14,480 bases of DNA, taken from a virus. Taxonomy: Duplodnaviria > Heunggongvirae > Uroviricota > Caudoviricetes. This document shows, piece by piece, positions 6,190 to 14,480 of this stretch. The stretch is from IMG/VR virus record IMGVR_UViG_2778261572_000004, one strand, 5' to 3'. A program made the translations under genes and the position numbers. The notes beneath the pieces are model-generated. The model saw nothing but the letters and a program-made list of their open reading frames with translations, did no database searches and was not told the origin of the DNA. Every line of letters begins with the position of its first letter. The first letter of the stretch is position 1.

Positions 6190-6878
6190 TCATCGAGCTG
6201 CAACAAATAATGCCTTCTCAATCTCAGCAAATGGATCTGAGGTGCCTTCTGTCTGCTCCTTCTCCCACTGAAGAAGCGCATCATTCAGTGGCACTTTGAC
6301 CCCCTGCGCACCGTAAACAGCTGAAACAATCTGGGCAGCCCGGATATCAGCCCGTTCGTCCCCCAGCGGGCTGAACCTGTCAAATTCTGCCCACATCATG
6401 ATTTCTGATGCGGACATTTCCCGGCGTAACTCTGACAATGTGCGCCCCATCCTGAGCGCCAGCATCATCAGAAAACGCATCCCCGGAAGCGCTACTTTTT
6501 TTTAACCTCTCCGGCATCACTGATCAGTTCCAGAGACTGGCGAAGAAGCCGGGCATGCACCGGACCATACACGGCAATCACCTGTTCACGATCACCCTCT
6601 GAAAATACGGGTTGCAGCCCGGTATCACATAGAACATCAATGAACAGTTCAACGTCCGCCTCCAGATTTCGGCGGGCACGCTCTGCAACAGATGGCGATG
6701 TATCATCTTCCCTGGCTTTAACGATCTCCTGCCAGCGCAACCAGGCTTCTGCAGAAGGTTCCCGTAACACAACCGTTGCCCCTTCCCATTCAGGCACATC
6801 AACGGTTTTATGGCGAAACCCCGACATCGTTGCCAGTGCCAGATTACGGATATTTTTAGTCATCACACCCATCCTCAT
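6190..6878 (-). CDS. Tail assembly chaperone G-T fusion, produced by programmed -1 ribosomal frameshift near 6495-6504
   Basis: The G frame ends ...GEVKKK-stop (TAG at 6494-6492). The last codons lie in the run GTT AAA AAA AAG. The -1 frame is open from 6501 and continues through VALPG into the 96-aa ORF at 6190..6480 (MRFLMMLALRMGR...). Same gene position and logic as the lambda G/GT frameshift. Confidence 0.8.
6492..6878 (-). CDS. Tail assembly chaperone (gpG-like), unshifted product
   Basis: 128-aa acidic protein directly downstream of the major tail gene and upstream of the tape measure gene, ending in a slippery A-run. The ATG at 6878 overlaps the major tail stop (TAATG); an in-frame ATG at 6863 (MTKNIRNL...) with a GAGG 9 nt upstream is an alternative start. 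Confidence 0.8.
   Translation of the reverse strand: MRMGVMTKNIRNLALATMSGFRHKTVDVPEWEGATVVLREPSAEAWLRWQEIVKAREDDTSPSVAERARRNLEADVELFIDVLCDTGLQPVFSEGDREQVIAVYGPVHARLLRQSLELISDAGEVKKK
6495..6504 (-). other. Slippery heptamer A AAA AAG (8-A run) for the G-T -1 frameshift
   Basis: Plus-strand T8 at 6496-6503; in mRNA sense GTT AAA AAA AAG TAG. Shifting -1 at A AAA AAG enters the downstream ORF frame (codon tops congruent to 0 mod 3). Confidence 0.8.
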
Positions 6879-7582
6879 TAACTGACGGTTACAGTGCAGG
6901 AAGTGGAGGTCACCTTGTTAACCGGGCTTGCAGAATCAGAAATCTCGCAGGTATACGCACCCGCATCACCGGATACTGCTGATGCCTTGCTGAACGTTGC
7001 CGCTGTCTGTCCGGAAACAGGAGAACCACCTTTTTTCCAGGCATAAGAATAAGGCGGCACACCACCCGCAGCCTCAACCACCATTTCGAGTTTCGCTCCG
7101 GCAGAAACCTGCAGCGTGCTGTTTAAATCGACCTTCACTTTCAGCGGCTCTGTCGTCAGCACAGGTTTACCTTTCAGACGCAGGGAAAACGTTGCAGCCA
7201 CAACACCATTGGTTCCTGCAGACCAGGTATGCTGACGCACCTCTGCCATAAAGGTAAATCCGTTGCCTGACGGAAAAATAACTTTAAAGCCATACGTGGT
7301 GTCATTGTCATAGGCACTGCGCAACGCGTTCTGGGCAGCGTTGAGATAAAAGTTTCCTGACATGGAAATCTCTGAAGCAGCCCCAAGACCGTTAATATTT
7401 TCCTGCTCAACAGAACACAGCGTAGTGACATCAATATCCTGCTTTTGTCCAGCGGTAAACTGCACTTCTTTGATTGTACAGCTCAGCCCAAGAAAGCTGG
7501 CAGAATCCAGGGTTTCTGCTGTTACCGGTGCAGACGAAATCATAATTTTCGTCAGTTGCGAACGCTCAAAATTAGAGGACAT
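6878..7582 (-). CDS. Major tail protein with C-terminal Ig-like (Big_2-type) domain
   Basis: 234 aa from the ATG at 7582 (MSSNFERSQLTKIM...), which has an AGGAG Shine-Dalgarno 6 nt upstream. The C-terminal ~80 aa (VKVDLNSTLQVSAGAKLEMVVEAAGGVPPYSYAWKK...YTCEISD...) looks like a bacterial Ig-like domain, as on lambda gpV. The in-frame ATG at 7633 is an alternative but would place the hairpin and U-tract inside the coding sequence. Confidence 0.8.
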   Translation of the reverse strand: MSSNFERSQLTKIMISSAPVTAETLDSASFLGLSCTIKEVQFTAGQKQDIDVTTLCSVEQENINGLGAASEISMSGNFYLNAAQNALRSAYDNDTTYGFKVIFPSGNGFTFMAEVRQHTWSAGTNGVVAATFSLRLKGKPVLTTEPLKVKVDLNSTLQVSAGAKLEMVVEAAGGVPPYSYAWKKGGSPVSGQTAATFSKASAVSGDAGAYTCEISDSASPVNKVTSTSCTVTVS

Positions 7583-7594
7583 ACTCGTCTCCTG

Positions 7595-7620
7595 AAAATA
7601 AAAAACCCGCCAGCGGCGGG
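7595..7620 (-). terminator. Putative intrinsic terminator / attenuator between the neck genes and the major tail gene
   Basis: In mRNA sense: CCCGCC-GCU-GGCGGG (6-bp GC stem) followed by UUUUUUAUUUU. Lies in the intergenic gap just upstream of the major tail gene's SD. Confidence 0.5.
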
Positions 7621-7641
7621 TAGGTAAAATCATTAACGACC

Positions 7642-8775: not shown

Positions 8776-9093
8776 CTACAAAGGAATAAAACGATAAGGC
8801 TCCAGCAGAGAAGAAAAACCAAACGGGATTGGTGCCTTGCTGACATCTGAGGAATTTTCCCGGTTTTCGTACCAGTGCCCGACCAGCAACATAAGCGCCA
8901 GCAAAACATCATCAGCTATAAGCACCCCTTCTGGATCCCCCTCCGGCACCGTCTCCTCATAAAGCTTACGGTTGATAAAATTTTCTGCCTTGCGGCAGGC
9001 AGCCCGGAAATACAGCATCAGTAACTCATCATCAGTTGCATCATCTGTATCAATACGGCACTGCGCCCTGAGTTTTTCCACTATTGTTGCCAT
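8776..9093 (-). CDS. Head-tail connector protein (gp6-like)
   Basis: Start placed at the ATG at 9093 (MATIVEKLRAQCRIDTDDATDDELLMLYFRAA...), which has an AGGAG Shine-Dalgarno 6 nt upstream. The ORF-track start at 9171 lies inside the capsid gene. First gene after the major capsid protein. Confidence 0.75.
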   Translation of the reverse strand: MATIVEKLRAQCRIDTDDATDDELLMLYFRAACRKAENFINRKLYEETVPEGDPEGVLIADDVLLALMLLVGHWYENRENSSDVSKAPIPFGFSSLLEPYRFIPL

Positions 9094-9136
9094 CAGAAAC
9101 TCCTGCCCGCAACACTGTGCGGGCATAAAAACCGCA

Positions 9137-10360
9137 TTACGCTGCGGCTTTCTGGCGGGTTGCAGCCCCAATTTTCATCAGCTTAATCGCCTGAGAATCC
9201 ACCAGCATACCGCCGGTTCGTTTGGTGGTATAAAAGCCCACAAACGGTTTGTTGGTGTACGGGTCACGCAGGATACGGGTACCGATGCGATCAACGATGG
9301 TATAGCCGCGTTTGAAGTTACCAAACGCAATGGCTTTTGCATCGGCGGCAATATCCGGCATCTGCTCATTTTCAACGATGCCATACCCTGCCAGAGAAGA
9401 AGGCTGCCCCAGCTCAATACCCGGGCGCCACAGATAATTTCCGTCGTTATCCTTCAGCAGACGAATGGCAAACAGGCTGCTGTTGTTCATCATAAACTTC
9501 GCGCCGCTACGGTGCGCCTTGCGCAGGGTGTAAATCAGTTTAATGATCGCATCGGCAGTCACGCCGGAAGCCGCACCGGAAGCAATGTGCTGAAGTTTGC
9601 CAAACGCACGGGTCTTGTCATCTTCATCGGTGGACTCGTAAGCCAGAAAACCTTTTGGTTTTTTGCTGCCGTCGCCACTGGTAAAGGCAATTTCTTCCTG
9701 TTCGGCAAATTCCAGCGCCAGCTCACTGTTGATCCAGTCTTCCACATTGAAGAAAGCGTCATCGAGCATTTTCTGGGTGGCCTGCGGGTTGCCGTAGATT
9801 TCCCCCATAAAGGGTTCAATCAGACCCAGTTTTGATGTGGCGGTTTCCGGACGAGCATCCGTTTCCCCCACCCATCCGGACGTTGTGCCGCCCAGATTCA
9901 CCAGTTTTTTATAATCCGAGCCACCGAGGGTGATCACAGTGGCTTCCTGGCGCATCACCACCTCATCTTTCAGCAACGTCAGAATGGTGCGGTCCAGTTC
10001 TTCCGGAATGGCATAACCACCATCTTCATCATTGCCCACCTGCATCGCCTTACGCTCAAGCTCACGCAGGCCGTCTTCACGCCCCTTGCGCATAAATCCG
10101 ATAAACGCTTCTTTATGTTCACCGGCAACTTTATTTTGCGTGCCGCCTGCCGGACGCTTGACTTCAGCCAGTTCAGCTTCAAGATCGCTTTTCAGATTTT
10201 CCAGTTCAGCCAGTTTTCCGTTGAGGGTTTCCACTTCACCAGCAAGTTTTCCCTTTTCCTGCTCGATCGCGTCGATACGTTTGTCGTTTTTTTCCTTAAA
10301 ATCGTCAAACTTCCGCTGCAACTCCTGCGCGACCTGTTCCACATCTTTAACATCAGCCAT
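9137..10360 (-). CDS. Major capsid protein, HK97 fold, with N-terminal coiled-coil delta (scaffolding) domain
   Basis: 407 aa. The N-terminal ~100 aa is strongly charged and heptad-like (MADVKDVEQVAQELQRKFDDFKEKNDKRIDAIEQEKGKLAGEVETLNGKLAELENLKSDLEAELAEVK), followed by a capsid-like body. AGGAGA Shine-Dalgarno 6 nt upstream. Immediately downstream of the prohead protease with no separate scaffold gene. Confidence 0.9.
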   Translation of the reverse strand: MADVKDVEQVAQELQRKFDDFKEKNDKRIDAIEQEKGKLAGEVETLNGKLAELENLKSDLEAELAEVKRPAGGTQNKVAGEHKEAFIGFMRKGREDGLRELERKAMQVGNDEDGGYAIPEELDRTILTLLKDEVVMRQEATVITLGGSDYKKLVNLGGTTSGWVGETDARPETATSKLGLIEPFMGEIYGNPQATQKMLDDAFFNVEDWINSELALEFAEQEEIAFTSGDGSKKPKGFLAYESTDEDDKTRAFGKLQHIASGAASGVTADAIIKLIYTLRKAHRSGAKFMMNNSSLFAIRLLKDNDGNYLWRPGIELGQPSSLAGYGIVENEQMPDIAADAKAIAFGNFKRGYTIVDRIGTRILRDPYTNKPFVGFYTTKRTGGMLVDSQAIKLMKIGAATRQKAAA

Positions 10361-10374
10361 TATTTTTCTCCTGG

Positions 10375-11025
10375 TTAAAATTTAAGATTTTTCAGTGCAT
10401 TCAGTGCGGCATCCACATCCTCAGCATCACGCAGGGATAAAGCGCCATATCCCCCGGCCATGAATGCTTTGGCCTGGGTTCGCGAGAGTCCAACATCGCG
10501 CAGGACCCGCTCAATAATTTTCTGATCAGGGATCTCCCCACGCGCCAGCGCATTTTTCACATCGCTGATGCGTGCTTCATCATTGGAAGGAAACGTCACC
10601 AGACTGACCTCCCACAGGTCGATCTCTTTCAGCAGGAATACCCCTTTTTCCCGATCGTACTCCCAGTCTTTCAGAATGTAGCCAATAGAAAGGCCGGTTA
10701 AAGAACCGGCCTTCATATGGGCATGTGCACGTTTTGCCAGGGGATCATCATCAACGAGTAATCGCCCCCTGACATAAAGCCCGACATCATCTTCTTTCAT
10801 TTCGGTGTACACACCGATGGGCTCATCCATGCGGTGCTGCCAGAGCAACGCAGGCAGCGCCTTTTTTTCGCTCCATTTCTGGAGTGTTGTGGTAAAGGCT
10901 CCGGGGACCACCACATCATCGTGGCTGTCCTTAACACCAAAAACAGAACCGTAACCTTCAAATTCCCCGGAATCACTGACGGATTTCAGGTTCAGCGGTA
11001 TATCAAGACGCTGCTTTGTCTGCAT
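10375..11025 (-). CDS. Prohead maturation protease (HK97 family, S78-like)
   Basis: Contains GYGSVFGVKDSHDDVVVPGAF, typical of HK97-family prohead proteases. Start placed at the ATG at 11025 (MQTKQRLDIP...), which has an AAGGAG Shine-Dalgarno; the ATG at 11055 has none and lies deeper in the portal gene. Confidence 0.85.
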   Translation of the reverse strand: MQTKQRLDIPLNLKSVSDSGEFEGYGSVFGVKDSHDDVVVPGAFTTTLQKWSEKKALPALLWQHRMDEPIGVYTEMKEDDVGLYVRGRLLVDDDPLAKRAHAHMKAGSLTGLSIGYILKDWEYDREKGVFLLKEIDLWEVSLVTFPSNDEARISDVKNALARGEIPDQKIIERVLRDVGLSRTQAKAFMAGGYGALSLRDAEDVDAALNALKNLKF

Positions 11026-12244
11026 CTCCACTCTCCTTTTTCTTACCGTTGTCATCGCCAGCAGAGGGACTGGTGGTCATGTTCATCGGCGTCAGATACA
11101 CATCACCGCCCGGGCGGGGATTCATATCTTCCAGATCACGGCAGTCATTAGGGGAATAAATCCCCCAGTTGATCCCCGTGGCATACGCTTCAAAGCGGGA
11201 TTTCATGTCGCCACGCAACAATGCTCCGGCATTAAATTTGGCGTAAAACTTCCCCTGTTTGCTCTCCCTGACCAGCCCTGTATTGATCCGCTGTTCAATA
11301 CGGGTCAGATACGGCACAAGGGAATAGTTAATGAAGCCAAGCCCCAGCTCTTCAATATTGTTGAAGGTGGCGCGATCGGTGTTCTGCACCATATGCAGCG
11401 GCACGCGGAACAGGCGACAGATTTCTTCCAGCTGAAACTTGCGGGTTTCCAGGAACTGGCTGTCCTCGGCATTCAGTGCCACCGGCTTCCAGTCCAGCCC
11501 CATTTCCAGAATCATCGGACGGTGCGCATTACCCAGCCCAAGATGCCGCTCCTCAAAATCCCTCTTCATGCGCTCATAAGCATCCGGCGTGAGCTTTTGT
11601 TCCGTACGCAACACACCGGATGTCACTGCACCGTTACCAAACAACCTGGCGCCGTGCTCCTCAGTTGCCGCTGCCAGTGAAATGGCCTCACGCGCATACG
11701 CAATGGGATTCAGCCCGACCAGTCCGTCCAGCGTCAGAGTGCGCACATGCCAGATTTCATTCTGGGTCAGCACATCCACGGAGCCATCCGGAAACGTCAC
11801 CTGATAAACCGGCTGCCACTGGCTGTTCAGCTTCGGTTCCACACAGCCCGGATCTATCGGAAGAAGCTCCACAACTTCCCCCAGAGCCTTTACCTTGTAG
11901 GCGTAAAAATTACCCCGCAGACACAGGCAGACGATAACCAGTTCCCAGAATTCCTGCGGCGTCATGTAGCCATTGGGTTTTGCCGAAATCAGCTTATGCA
12001 GCCGTTCATCCACCGCCCGTGTTTTAAGGGTGCCGCTGATTTTGTAGAGACTGCAGGGCAGCATACCAACAGACTCAGCCAGCACCCTGACGCAGGAATA
12101 CACCGCCGTCAGCCGCATGGCCCGCTGGCTGCTGATCCGCTTTCCGGTATAGGTGTCGTATGACAACCCCAGCTCTTCCGCAAGCATCCCGGGCGTTGTG
12201 ACGGGGGTGTTATTTTTGCGTTGAAAAAGCCCCTGGAAAAACAT
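11003..12244 (-). CDS. Portal protein (HK97 family)
   Basis: 413-aa ORF between terminase and protease with a portal-like sequence (...AVYSCVRVLAESVGMLP... and an acidic C-terminus). GGAGGTGA Shine-Dalgarno upstream; the start overlaps the stop of the small upstream ORF. Confidence 0.9.
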   Translation of the reverse strand: MFFQGLFQRKNNTPVTTPGMLAEELGLSYDTYTGKRISSQRAMRLTAVYSCVRVLAESVGMLPCSLYKISGTLKTRAVDERLHKLISAKPNGYMTPQEFWELVIVCLCLRGNFYAYKVKALGEVVELLPIDPGCVEPKLNSQWQPVYQVTFPDGSVDVLTQNEIWHVRTLTLDGLVGLNPIAYAREAISLAAATEEHGARLFGNGAVTSGVLRTEQKLTPDAYERMKRDFEERHLGLGNAHRPMILEMGLDWKPVALNAEDSQFLETRKFQLEEICRLFRVPLHMVQNTDRATFNNIEELGLGFINYSLVPYLTRIEQRINTGLVRESKQGKFYAKFNAGALLRGDMKSRFEAYATGINWGIYSPNDCRDLEDMNPRPGGDVYLTPMNMTTSPSAGDDNGKKKESGDADKAAS

Positions 12245-12426
12245 TACTCACCTCCGGAGGCGACCCGGTGACCGCGATCGAGATAACGCGCAACCAGCCA
12301 CGACCAGCACAGACACAGCGCCCCGGCAACAACAAAACCAGCCGGGGGATAAATCAGCCAGGCGCCATACGCCAGCAAAAGCGCCCCCAGCACGCCCACC
12401 AGTGGCGTGAGAATTATCAGAAACAT
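12244..12426 (-). CDS. Small hydrophobic protein with two predicted TM helices, between terminase large subunit and portal
   Basis: 60 aa: [64 protein letters not shown] Shine-Dalgarno 5 nt upstream of the ATG, 10 nt after the terminase stop; its stop overlaps the portal start. It fills an otherwise unexplained ~190-nt gap. Coordinates are taken from the ORF track, because my base-by-base count in this stretch disagreed with the track by one nucleotide. Confidence 0.5.
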
Positions 12427-12437
12427 AATGACCTCGG

Positions 12438-14195
12438 TTAAAGCGAGCGGATACCAACGCTGACCAGATGCTCAGACAGATCCGGCTCCGGTTCACCGCC
12501 ATTGACCAGCATCCGGCTCATTGCTGTAAACATCGCAACAGGACCGTCGATTTTGGCTTCCGGCGTGGATTTGTTCGGGAAGATATTGTCGTTTTTGTCC
12601 GGTTTTACCGTAACGTTAGACATCATCCAGTTCATGACCGGGTGATTGCTGTGGTGAAAACGCCCGGCATAGACCAGTGATTCCGTTTCCTTCATGGCCT
12701 CTGACAGATTGCGGACCGTCTGCGGAACTTCCACCAGCGGTATACCTTCTTCAGCCAGCGCCAGACTGAACTGCATTGCGCTCCACGGGTCAAATCCCAG
12801 TTCCCTCAGGTTTTCACCGCCAATCCATTCCAGCAGGTCACTTTTTATCTGAGTATGATCGATAACATCACCATCCGTCAGGATGAGTTTATCCATCTCC
12901 GCCCATTTCCGGTAAAGTTCTGCCTGCTGCCGTGAGCATCGTTCCAGCCGTCCTTCCGGAAGCCAGAATTTAAAATCGGCATGAACATGCCCGTTATCCG
13001 TTCGCCAGAGTTTTGCCGCCGCACAGATATCAATCTTATGAGCAAGGTCGACGCCGACCCACATGGGATAGGTTTTCAGCTCATGCTGTGGAGCAATGTA
13101 TTCGCACTTCTCCCACTTAATCATATCCATCCAGGCAGATTCGGCAGTGACCCACACATTCATGTGTTTGGTAAAAAAATTCACCCGCGCAGAGACCTGT
13201 TCTTTCGCTTTTTTCGCCAGACGACGCAGATCATCCCAGCGTTTACAGATGCCCAGGCCCGGATTCGCTTTCTGCCAGACCGTTTCATCAAACGGATCAT
13301 CTCCCTCATCGAGCGTGTAAATGATCGCAAAGTAGGAGTCGTCTTTTACTGCGCCCTCCACGTTGCTGTTATAGCCACGCAATACCTTGATGGCGTAATC
13401 GCGTTGCTCGTAACAAATCCCTTCCTTGTTAAAGCCCGCCGTGGTGATACCAAATAACAGGGACTGCAGACGGGCACCGGTTGCCGTTTCCAGAACGTCC
13501 CACACGTCGCGGGTTTTATGTGCATGCAGCTCATCAATAATGGCACAGTGGATGTTCAGACCGTCCAGGTTGTTTGCATCCGAGGAAAGCGGTTCAAATT
13601 TTGATGCGCTCTGCTCCTGGTAAATCGCCAGCTTGTTGAAATCAAACAATCGCCCGAGTGTCGACCGGGCTTTTCTGACCATATTTTTGGCGTCTTCAAA
13701 CACAATTCTGGCCTGGTCACGCGTGGTTGCGGCTGAATACACCTCAGCACCGCCTTCACCATCTGCCCCCGTCATATACAGGCCGATACCCGATGACAGG
13801 GTTGATTTTGCGTTTTTACGGGCGACTTCGTTGTACGCCGTACGGAACCGGCGCACCATCACCGGACGTCCGCTGCCATCGCTGCGCATGACAACTTCCC
13901 CGGTCTCTTCATTGACCAGCGGAATGACAAAACCAAAAATATTAATGAGGATAAATACATGCCAGTCCATCAGTTCAATGGGCTGGCCTGCCAGCGCCCC
14001 TTTTACATGGGGCACAAATTTGTAGAAATTCAGGATGTGCTGCGCACGGGGTTCACTGAAATAAATCCCCCGCTCTTCGCCGTACTTCAGATCATCAAGA
14101 AAACGCTGGCAGGCCAGACGGACAAATTCGCCAGCGACAATTTCTCCTGCAACAACACGTTCGGCGTAGCGGATCCCGTCAGCCACTTTTGCCAT
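12438..14195 (-). CDS. Terminase large subunit
   Basis: 585-aa ORF immediately downstream of the small-subunit gene (ATGA overlap at 14195), with size and position typical of phage TerL (ATPase N-terminal region, nuclease-like C-terminal region). Confidence 0.9.
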
Positions 14196-14480
14196 CAGTC
14201 TCTCGCTTTTAAAAGCTCCGCCAGCGGATCAACATCATCCGGTCCGGCGGTATTTACTTTCGCCCGGCTTGCCGGTGACATACCAAATTCTGCAAGCATC
14301 GCCCGGATCCGCTTCCAGGCATCCGCTTTCATCGCAGCAGCCGGGTGTGCCTTAATCAGCACATCACCGTTCTGCGTTTTCGTGCGGTAGGTATACCCCT
14401 CAACATCGAGTGTTTCGCAGTGATGCCGGTATTCGGTGTAGGCTTCCACCAGTAACTCGAGTGCACGCGCATCAAGCTGA
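14195..14480 (-). CDS. Terminase small subunit (P27-family-like), C-terminal part; gene continues beyond the window end
   Basis: The frame is open to the window edge; the ORF-track M at 14449 is a GTG inside the frame (...QLDARALELL-V-EAYTEYRHHCETLDVEGYTYRTKTQNGDVLIKAHPAAAM...GMSPASRAKV...). Stop overlaps the TerL start. Confidence 0.8.
   Translation of the reverse strand, partial: QLDARALELLVEAYTEYRHHCETLDVEGYTYRTKTQNGDVLIKAHPAAAMKADAWKRIRAMLAEFGMSPASRAKVNTAGPDDVDPLAELLKARD

Follow-up and report, generated by a model that had tools for sequence, protein, structure and literature searches.

The window analysed here (the whole 14,480-nucleotide stretch of IMG/VR virus record IMGVR_UViG_2778261572_000004, Caudoviricetes) carries on its minus strand a large terminase gene and a portal gene, and the short gap between them is filled by an ORF of 60 codons (Table 1), whose ATG (12426..12424) and TAA (12246..12244) are given both by the ORF list and by reading of the sequence. 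The original prediction had described it as a small, very hydrophobic ORF with a good Shine-Dalgarno sequence and tight coupling at both ends, and its coordinates, hydropathy and junctions all agree with that description. At the upstream end, the TerL stop codon (12440..12438) is followed by an 11-nt spacer holding the GAGG and then by the ATG of the small ORF. At the downstream end, the stop codon of the small ORF and the start codon of the portal gene overlap in TAATG, and the final Gly-Gly codons of the small ORF form the Shine-Dalgarno sequence of the portal gene (GGAGG, 12255..12251). As read from the sequence, the TAATG overlap is translational coupling, and the small gene, which follows TerL in close coupling, is one of the genes of the late operon for morphogenesis. 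The geometry recurs in homologous loci: of 134 distinct junctions, 52 place the start of the small ORF 12 nt beyond the final base of the TerL stop and 68 have it overlap TerL by 7 nt, while the 1-nt overlap with the portal start occurs in 124 of 130.

Table 1. Features of the terminase-portal junction and of the gene lying in it.
Feature	Coordinates	Strand	Basis or remark
Large terminase gene (TerL_ATPase + TerL_nuclease)	12438..14195	-	Pfam; upstream neighbour as a rule, though exchangeable
Shine-Dalgarno GAGG of the small ORF	12432..12435	-	Sequence reading; 5 nt ahead of the ATG
YmfR-family small membrane protein CDS	12244..12426	-	ORF list, phrog_502, identity to YmfR, substitution tests
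Predicted transmembrane helix 1 (residues 2-25; invariant G11, G14, G21, W23)	12352..12423	-	Hydropathy, AlphaFold2
Tight turn Y-P-P-A-G (residues 26-30)	12337..12351	-	Motif best conserved in the family
Predicted transmembrane helix 2 (residues 31-46; G35, C38-L39, W41-S42-W43)	12289..12336	-	Conservation, hydropathy, AlphaFold2
C-terminal tail (residues 47-60), short, variable, net-basic, predicted cytoplasmic	12247..12288	-	Charges, alignment
TAATG junction	12242..12246	-	Stop of the small ORF and portal start codon share one base, 12244
Portal gene (PF04860)	11003..12244	-	Pfam, E 3.4e-108; invariant downstream partner of the small ORF
Alternative 84-aa ORF	12248..12502	-	Rejected as a gene; 65-nt overlap with the 3' end of TerL

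By its length alone the ORF lies within chance, because the window contains 69 ORFs that reach 60 aa or more, and many of these run across the long annotated genes, either in a different frame or antisense to them; it is conservation that lifts the 60-aa ORF above chance. A comparison of this junction among relatives, which had been proposed together with a test of synonymous against non-synonymous substitution, gave a clear answer: the 60-aa frame is open in 15 of the 15 relatives checked (including PY54, with corrected coordinates), and the substitution pattern favours it as well. Among close relatives dN/dS is 0.39 in this frame versus 0.90 and 1.69 in the other two, and among distant relatives pN/pS is 0.52 versus 1.05 and 1.44, the mean pairwise difference at the three codon positions of the latter being 0.43/0.30/0.63, with the third position varying most. 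The overlapping frame that had been pointed out as a competitor does exist (84 aa); however, the comparison of frames shows that the 60-aa frame is the coding one. In 6 of 7 distant relatives the 84-aa frame has at least two stops inside the span of the small ORF; in phiKO2, the window and the close relatives of the window it has one, which in the window is its own terminal stop. The 84-aa ORF has zero matches in Pfam, PHROGs or NCBIfam, and the stops, the pN/pS-type ratios of 1.44 to 1.69 and the missing family rule it out as a gene. An antisense ORF of 57 aa (12268..12441) is ruled out by stops in distant relatives and by the lack of a family match. The frame is thus conserved and its competitor is not coding, so that both objections raised in advance against the prediction fall away.

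Two further candidates in the gap were rejected. A structured RNA or regulatory element is not supported, as the gap folds no better than its shuffles (z = +0.71) and an Rfam search of it returned nothing at E <= 1. As for the "putative rho-independent terminator" annotated in SfII inside the ORF, in the window it amounts to a 5-bp stem (12393..12381) with conserved coding sequence on both sides, and we did not treat it as functional. Judging from the comparison of frames and from the family match, the sequence 12426..12244 on the minus strand truly encodes a protein, one that belongs to the YmfR/phrog_502 family.

Its product matches phrog_502 ("membrane protein") over residues 1-54 (E 6.1e-26) and is 80% identical both to YmfR (b1150) of the e14 element of Escherichia coli K-12 and to SfII gp03; identity is 78-85% to the enterobacterial members of the family and 43% to phiKO2 Gp3. 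In total, 165 homologues were retrieved at E <= 1e-3, one of them identical in sequence, and the identical protein (P0001) is recorded on 987 contigs. The family spans 494 clusters at 50% identity, and the junction is carried by 1075 of 5426 complete E. coli genomes, i.e. about a fifth. The suggestion that the gap might harbour an unannotated family therefore has to be withdrawn: a YmfR-type gene between TerL and the portal gene is an already known and annotated prophage family, with homologues annotated in phiP27, SfII (gp03), SfI (gp003), ST64B (Sb3), phiKO2 (gp3) and others. The names given to it vary. The RefSeq product name of the K-12 e14 ymfR gene is "IPR020297 domain-containing protein YmfR", the phiP27 record has "putative integral membrane protein" for the homologue L37, and several GenBank records call YmfR homologues "head-tail joining protein W", which is an annotation error. 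The small protein has no significant match in NCBIfam, Pfam, the sequences of PDB or the PADLOC defence models. In the literature on ymfR, b1150, the phiP27/ST64B membrane protein and terminase-portal transmembrane proteins we found no functional study; ymfR is mentioned only within lists of deleted e14 genes. The annotation of the window itself is settled: the 60-aa frame is the gene, and its right name is "YmfR-family membrane protein".

The locus invites comparison with lambda, where the gene of the head-tail adaptor gpW (68 aa) is of the same size and lies in the same slot, where it overlaps terminase A on one side and portal B on the other. The general premise that terminase and portal genes normally adjoin or overlap accordingly holds in part: in HK97 the two genes overlap directly, but in lambda gene W sits between them. 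Homology to gpW was nevertheless rejected. The two proteins gave no BLASTP alignment at E <= 100, and no adaptor family is found among the PHROG or Pfam matches of the small protein. While gpW is a soluble head-completion protein, the protein of the window is hydrophobic through residues 1-46; moreover, an Ad1-type adaptor is already encoded elsewhere in the window (8776..9171).

The predicted fold of the product is a hairpin of two helices that an invariant Y-P-P-A-G turn connects, and the earlier proposal of a two-helix membrane protein is in keeping both with the hydropathy and with an AlphaFold2 model. The protein has a GRAVY of +1.18, is hydrophobic throughout residues 1-46 and has R47 as its first charged residue; the model (pLDDT 75.7) contains two helices, 2-25 and 27-57, with a break at residue 26. 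Invariant columns of the alignment are G11, G14, G21 and W23 before the turn, Y26, P27, P28 and G30 within it (these four across 17 diverse members), and G35, C38, L39, W41, S42 and W43 after it; in distant representatives the P-A-G core of the turn persists, and across the 494 clusters this turn is kept together with a conserved pattern of Gly and Trp. The family pattern, i.e. about 60 aa with a [YF]-x-P-A-G turn and the motifs G..G..G-x-W and C-L-x-W-S, is present in the protein of the window. Its tail carries R47, D50, R51, H53, R54 and E60, and each of the 17 aligned members, like most of the distant ones, has an R or K after helix 2, while the tail stretch is only 54-56% identical to that of every close relative. 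A structure search of BFVD with the AlphaFold2 hairpin returned only non-significant, uncharacterised small helical proteins (best E 0.85), a 60-residue hairpin holding too little fold information for such a search. The prediction of two helices with a charged tail is compatible with a holin, yet generic to many small membrane proteins.

The position of the gene was examined from both sides. In loci found via the small ORF the order TerL-small ORF-portal is seen in 43 of 44. When loci were picked by the portal alone, the small ORF was directly upstream of the HK97-family portal gene in 156 of 156, namely in 79/79 with window-like portals and in 77/77 with AS1/phiKO2-like portals, although the latter are only about 37% identical to the portal of the window. 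Of six distant metagenomic members, five have a PF04860 gene as their immediate downstream neighbour, the sixth contig ending before its downstream gene (several contigs of very distant members are too short to show both neighbours), and distant members keep the PF04860 neighbour even where the upstream gene is no recognisable TerL. Identity of TerL to that of the relatives is about 37% or about 99%, whereas the small ORF and the portal stay steady at 78-96%, and the identity of the small protein tracks that of the portal (r = 0.85) better than that of TerL (r = 0.54). As these identities indicate, TerL was swapped while the small ORF and the portal stayed together. Compared with phiKO2, the small protein is 43%, the portal 34% and TerL 37% identical, so the small protein has diverged about as fast as the structural genes beside it.

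The portal of the window begins with MFFQGLF and so carries the motif MF-x-x-x-[ML]-F, which is common to YmfR-linked portals and weaker in the most distant members; in HK97 the gp3 portal is without this N-terminal motif, and the small ORF is absent. In e14, a decayed prophage with only remnants of TerL and the portal, ymfR is still intact, and a Citrobacter locus has an intact ymfR-family gene and no TerL. Considering all these comparisons, we regard it as practically certain that the small ORF is a true gene of the YmfR family and that it is fixed within the portal module. The unbroken, overlapping linkage to the portal is a concrete lead on the function of a widespread family.

As to the function itself, our confidence is far lower. 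The explanation we prefer, tentatively and at somewhat less than an even chance, is that the protein is a late inner-membrane hairpin acting as a portal-dedicated accessory, comparable to gp40 of phage T4. It would be inserted in the inner membrane such that both termini face the cytoplasm, as suggested by the positive-inside rule, because a basic tail follows helix 2. Made late in infection together with the portal protein, it would retain nascent portal subunits at the inner membrane or act there as their chaperone, possibly through a contact with the conserved hydrophobic N-terminus of the portal, and the assembly of the ring and procapsid would begin, or packaging would occur, at this membrane. 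Such an assembly or tethering mechanism, modelled on the analogy with T4, is slightly more doubtful than the general assignment. The broader supposition that YmfR hairpins make up a previously unrecognised class of portal-dedicated morphogenetic factors, translated together with HK97-family portals in a very large group of proteobacterial temperate phages and docking the portal N-terminus, goes further still, and we consider it rather improbable. If it were true, heads would be initiated or DNA packaged at the membrane, a gp40-like step in phages thought to assemble their heads free in the cytoplasm.

Several observations restrain this proposal. The YmfR protein cannot be universally needed for HK97-type heads, because HK97 does without it; since HK97 builds portal-containing proheads in this way, a membrane step is not intrinsic to the head type. 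The linkage to the portal and the coupling are, besides, equally expected of any late gene that happened to occupy the slot. Should YmfR work with the portal, the assembly of HK97-type heads would gain a membrane step; otherwise, YmfR is one more small late membrane protein.

The first of the competing explanations makes the protein holin-like or a protein of lysis timing, which would oligomerise via its glycine-rich helices and permeabilise or depolarise the membrane, or modulate the main holin. Class II holins and pinholins, such as S68 of phage 21, are proteins of about 60-70 aa that are expressed late; they have two transmembrane helices, which are rich in glycine, a charged tail at the C-terminus, and both termini on the cytoplasmic side. 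The size of the YmfR protein, its predicted N-in/C-in two-helix topology, its Gly-rich helices and its basic tail match this class, and the small ORF lies in a late operon. Even so, no holin family was matched at E <= 1 in Pfam or PHROGs, and YmfR is flanked by TerL and the portal and not by an endolysin; SfII has a complete S/R/Rz/Rz1 cassette elsewhere, about 5 kb off, beyond the genome ends. Close relatives start with M-I-M, a faint echo of the dual-start motif, but conservation of this start is lacking (it reads MFL in the window), as is the charged residue of true dual starts, and the family has no conserved dual start. A lysis role would also leave unexplained the invariant overlapping linkage to portals only about 35% identical to each other. 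For these reasons we find the lysis explanation unlikely.

Slightly less likely again, in our view, is a superinfection-exclusion or other lysogen-benefit gene (a moron), i.e. an inner-membrane protein made by the prophage at a low level and blocking the entry of incoming phage DNA, as HK97 gp15 does. Prophages classically use small inner-membrane proteins for exclusion, and the persistence of an intact ymfR in the decayed e14 element and in the TerL-less Citrobacter locus could hint at such a host-side benefit. PHROGs, too, places phrog_502 in the category "moron, auxiliary metabolic gene and host takeover"; this category, however, appears to rest on nothing beyond the label "membrane protein", and the PADLOC search gave no match. 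Exclusion morons of the HK97 gp15 type are small prophage-encoded inner-membrane proteins amid virion genes; they have their own promoter and terminator and occur sporadically. The gene of the window shows neither signal: the promoter search gave one weak 9/12 match, with its -10 inside the ORF and within the shuffle expectation (shuffle mean 0.7), and there are only weak 5-6 bp hairpins. Its composition is like that of its neighbours (GC3 0.639 versus 0.647 in the portal gene), it is coupled to late genes, and within the two portal clades sampled its presence is universal, not sporadic. The same features (fixation in the portal lineage, no promoter or terminator of its own, GC3 like that of the portal) speak against the idea, put forward at the outset, of a small accessory gene.

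Much less probable is that the frame serves as a coupling or leader ORF, relaying ribosomes from TerL to the portal and setting the ratio of the two, with the peptide itself unimportant, or, in a variant of this idea, that its conserved core mainly serves recombination, linking the terminase module to the head module. The extreme conservation of the junction geometry at both ends, the portal Shine-Dalgarno sequence inside the last codons of the small ORF and the mosaic character of the joint (a nucleotide core conserved at 94-98% between unrelated TerL types and a divergent tail) would all suit it. Yet the amino-acid sequence is under purifying selection, which is not expected if only translation of the frame mattered, and the motif survives nucleotide divergence (third-position difference 0.63). 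Finally, that the gap is non-coding, or that its true product is the 84-aa or the antisense 57-aa ORF, has a negligible chance of being right: neither of these two ORFs is interrupted in the window or its close relatives, but both are stop-broken in distant relatives and match no family, only the 60-aa frame fits the substitution pattern, and the gap has neither an RNA family nor unusual RNA folding.

Returning to the portal-dedicated accessory, its model is T4, whose gp20 portal is assembled on the membrane, assisted by gp40, a viral chaperone (PMC9958956). The likeness consists in a small protein of the phage making it possible for the portal to assemble at the inner membrane, a role that we propose for YmfR from synteny, while the T4 portal and head differ greatly from the HK97-type module of the window. 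Gene 40 of T4 is not known to lie next to gene 20. The closest known counterparts of the gene are its orthologues in K-12, phiP27, SfII, SfI, ST64B and phiKO2, with which it shares the length, the two-helix pattern, the YPPAG turn and the slot between terminase and portal; what sets the protein of the window apart from other members is the N-terminus MFLIIL, found also in 606R7 and phi467, and a lineage-specific 11-residue stretch of the C-terminal tail.

The long genes of the window are all on the minus strand and make up a single late operon, in which the small ORF separates the large terminase (TerL) and portal genes. Its ATG at 12426 is located 11 nt past the TerL stop, with GAGG 5 nt upstream; at the other end, the sequence TAATG makes base 12244 common to the small-ORF TAA and the portal ATG, and the portal GGAGG falls inside the last codons of the small ORF. 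As read from the sequence, these features agree with the original prediction of an ORF with a Shine-Dalgarno motif and translational coupling at both ends. Among 134 distinct junction sequences, 52 place the small-ORF start 12 nt beyond the final base of the TerL stop, and 68 have a 7-nt overlap of the ORF with TerL; a one-base overlap of the ORF stop and the portal start is present in 124/130 junctions. The C-terminal Gly-Gly of the small protein (…SGGE; …GGGK in relatives) coincides with the portal Shine-Dalgarno, so the conservation of these residues may reflect the ribosome-binding site in the RNA and not the peptide.

Features of the window discussed in the text
Feature	Coordinates	Strand	Remark
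Small-terminase (TerS) fragment	14195..14449	minus	at window edge
TerL	12438..14195	minus	
Small ORF	12244..12426	minus	60 aa
Portal	11003..12244	minus	
Prohead protease, major capsid protein		minus	other late-operon genes
Adaptor, head-closure, neck proteins, tail terminator, major tail protein		minus	other late-operon genes
Tail chaperones, tape measure, minor tail proteins		minus	other late-operon genes
Major tail protein, C-terminal part	6878..7633	minus	
C-terminal Gly-Gly of small protein, with portal Shine-Dalgarno GGAGG	12247..12255		
Portal heptapeptide MFFQGLF	12224..12244		codons 1-7
Equivalent of putative SfII terminator	12381..12393	minus	probably not functional
Apparent mosaic joint	12177..12456	minus	
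84-aa frame	12248..12502		rejected as gene
Antisense ORF	12268..12441		57 aa; rejected as gene

The TerS ORF matches only positions 122-203 of the 246-position small-terminase profile, and the gene is thus truncated at the edge of the window. In relatives (loci L011, L012 and L208) TerS is preceded by an HNH endonuclease gene, an arrangement usual for HNH/P27-type cos packaging. For the major tail protein, the C-terminal part has further matches to the Hoc-like/Ig-like decoration families phrog_2973 and phrog_4069, resembling lambda gpV-type tail tubes with an Ig-like domain.

Sixty codons are no proof of a gene, since the window holds 69 ORFs of at least 60 aa, and it is the comparison that decides. 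In eight close relatives (phiP27, SfII, SfI, ST64B, 606R7, phi467 and e14 being those named), dN/dS is 0.39 in the 60-aa frame; the two remaining sense frames have 0.90 and 1.69. In nine diverse relatives (phiKO2, Marinobacter AS1, YeP1, PY54, P840, KpLi5 and others), pN/pS is 0.52 versus 1.05 and 1.44, and the mean pairwise differences at the three codon positions of the 60-aa frame are 0.43/0.30/0.63. This frame is open in every relative checked. The choice between it and the overlapping alternative, called for at the outset, is therefore settled by substitution pattern and conserved openness in favor of the 60-aa frame. In most distant relatives, stops break up both the 84-aa frame and the antisense ORF, neither of which has a family match. 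The small-ORF region has no match in Rfam, and its RNA folding is not unusual. In the SfII record (locus L002, 2370..2419) the small ORF contains an annotated "putative rho-independent terminator"; its window equivalent, a stem of just 5 bp with TTTTGC after it, is part of conserved coding sequence and thus is probably not functional.

The small protein matches phrog_502 "membrane protein" (E 6e-26) and shares 80% identity with YmfR (b1150), encoded by the cryptic E. coli K-12 prophage e14, where ymfR has the terminase remnant aaaE on one side and the portal remnant beeE on the other. All testable defining features of the YmfR/phrog_502 family were found in it, and it is a member of this family. 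RefSeq names the e14 protein "IPR020297 domain-containing protein YmfR", the phiP27 homologue is annotated as L37 "putative integral membrane protein", and annotated homologues also occur in SfII, SfI, ST64B (sb3), 118970_sal3, phiKO2 (gp3), Yersinia YeP1-3 and Marinobacter AS1. Hence the original prediction was right about a real gene in a conserved frame and wrong about a possible unannotated family: both gene and family are already known and annotated, which makes the ORF ordinary as a discovery. In SfIV (KC814930/NC_022749) and PY54 (AJ564013/NC_005069; locus L009, start 2295) the homologue is unannotated though the ORF is intact, and several recent records (ON470580, ON470603, ON470584, PQ793804) wrongly label it "head-tail joining protein W", an identity that we reject, as the homologue has no similarity to lambda W. 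The identical protein is on record in 987 contigs, and, of 5426 complete E. coli genomes, 1075 contain the junction sequence. When 1.84 billion representatives were searched with a profile, 494 clusters were obtained at E <= 1e-3, nearly all of 50-70 aa and with the pattern G-x-x-G...G-x-W-L-x-[YF]-x-P-A-G-[FYL]-I-x-x-G...L-x-W-S. The literature searched yielded no experimental work on any family member. Two Gram-positive-attributed records, OR844959.1 ("Enterococcus phage Efm 3-10", 1764 bp) and JAEWTL010000102.1 (locus L021, "MAG: Bacillota bacterium"; portal 85% identical), carry E. coli/Salmonella-type YmfR junctions with small proteins 78-80% identical, probably as a result of contamination or mis-binning.

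The small ORF is embedded in the late operon, and its linkage and coupling to the portal gene are obligatory. The order TerL-small ORF-portal was found in 43 of 44 loci chosen by the small ORF; with IMG/VR loci chosen by the portal, the ORF was present in 79/79 with portals at least 85% identical to that of the window and in 77/77 with portals 63-95% identical to that of AS1 (~37% to that of the window). Six distant metagenomic members were looked up, some from contigs of ~62-69% GC: in five the ORF immediately precedes a PF04860 gene, in the sixth the contig stops before the downstream gene, and in two the upstream gene is no recognisable TerL. Small-protein identity follows portal identity (r = 0.85) more closely than TerL identity (r = 0.54). 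YmfR-linked portals (loci L001-L204) start with a conserved hydrophobic heptapeptide MF-[FLIW]-x-x-[ML]-F, weaker in the most distant members (e.g., MGLFSRL, MKGLFRSL). HK97 has no such ORF, its TerL and portal genes overlapping directly; its portal gp3 starts with MEEPKYT and is 32% identical to that of the window from residue 15 on.

Up to its stop, the window TerL has 94-100% nucleotide identity to 606R7 and phi467, but only ~37% protein identity to phiP27 and SfII. In the small ORF, the part for the transmembrane core shows 94-98% identity to every relative from E. coli, Shigella and Salmonella, the ORF tail and the first ~100 nt of the portal gene are only 54-72% identical to any compared relative, and the remaining portal gene is 90-100% identical to phiP27. 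Judging from this identity pattern, the small ORF lies at a mosaic recombination joint and travels with the portal, and its conserved core may be a site at which the terminase and head modules cross over.

A membrane hairpin is predicted for the small protein. Its GRAVY is +1.18, residues 1-46 are uncharged, AlphaFold2 gives helices 2-25 and 27-57 (pLDDT 75.7, 17-sequence alignment), and the Y-P-P-A-G turn is invariant, as are several Gly and Trp. Helix 2 is followed by Arg or Lys in each of the 17 aligned members and in most of the distant ones, and the C-terminal tail, though variable, is basic; the positive-inside rule would thus put both ends on the cytoplasmic side.

Neither a promoter nor a terminator of its own was found for the small ORF, its GC3 equals that of the portal gene, and it diverges about as fast as the neighbouring structural genes. 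Together with the portal linkage, this speaks against a moron and in favor of a function of long standing in the head and packaging module. We tentatively suggest, by analogy and with less than even confidence, that the portal is what the small protein acts on. At the inner membrane, it would tether or chaperone portal subunits and thus bring the initiation of the ring or procapsid, or packaging, to that site. A holin-like or lysis-timing protein would fit the predicted topology, but the small protein has no holin profile match, and a full S/R/Rz/Rz1 cassette is present elsewhere in SfII. Superinfection exclusion would be in line with the PHROG category of phrog_502 and the intact ymfR of the decayed e14; however, moron signals are absent and PADLOC gave no match. 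A pure coupling ORF, the peptide itself being irrelevant, conflicts with the selection that acts on the peptide. As to decayed or rearranged prophages, the ORF is intact in e14 (locus L014, 5550..5732), where terminase and portal are remnants, and in Citrobacter sp. Awk 4 (locus L037, 3001..3183), where the upstream TerL-like gene is absent; this could be chance, the target being small, or hint at a host-side benefit.

To the known family our analysis adds the proof of frame, the corrected "W" label, the strict portal linkage with 1-nt overlap over very divergent lineages, the co-occurring portal N-terminal motif and the mosaic joint at the conserved core. The small protein shares only generic features with class II holins and with small exclusion proteins, several defining features of these classes having been sought and found absent. 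Lambda W occupies the same slot, yet is unrelated. For the proposed action on the portal at the inner membrane, T4 offers a precedent, its portal initiator gp20 being membrane-bound and dependent on the viral chaperone gp40 (PMC9958956).
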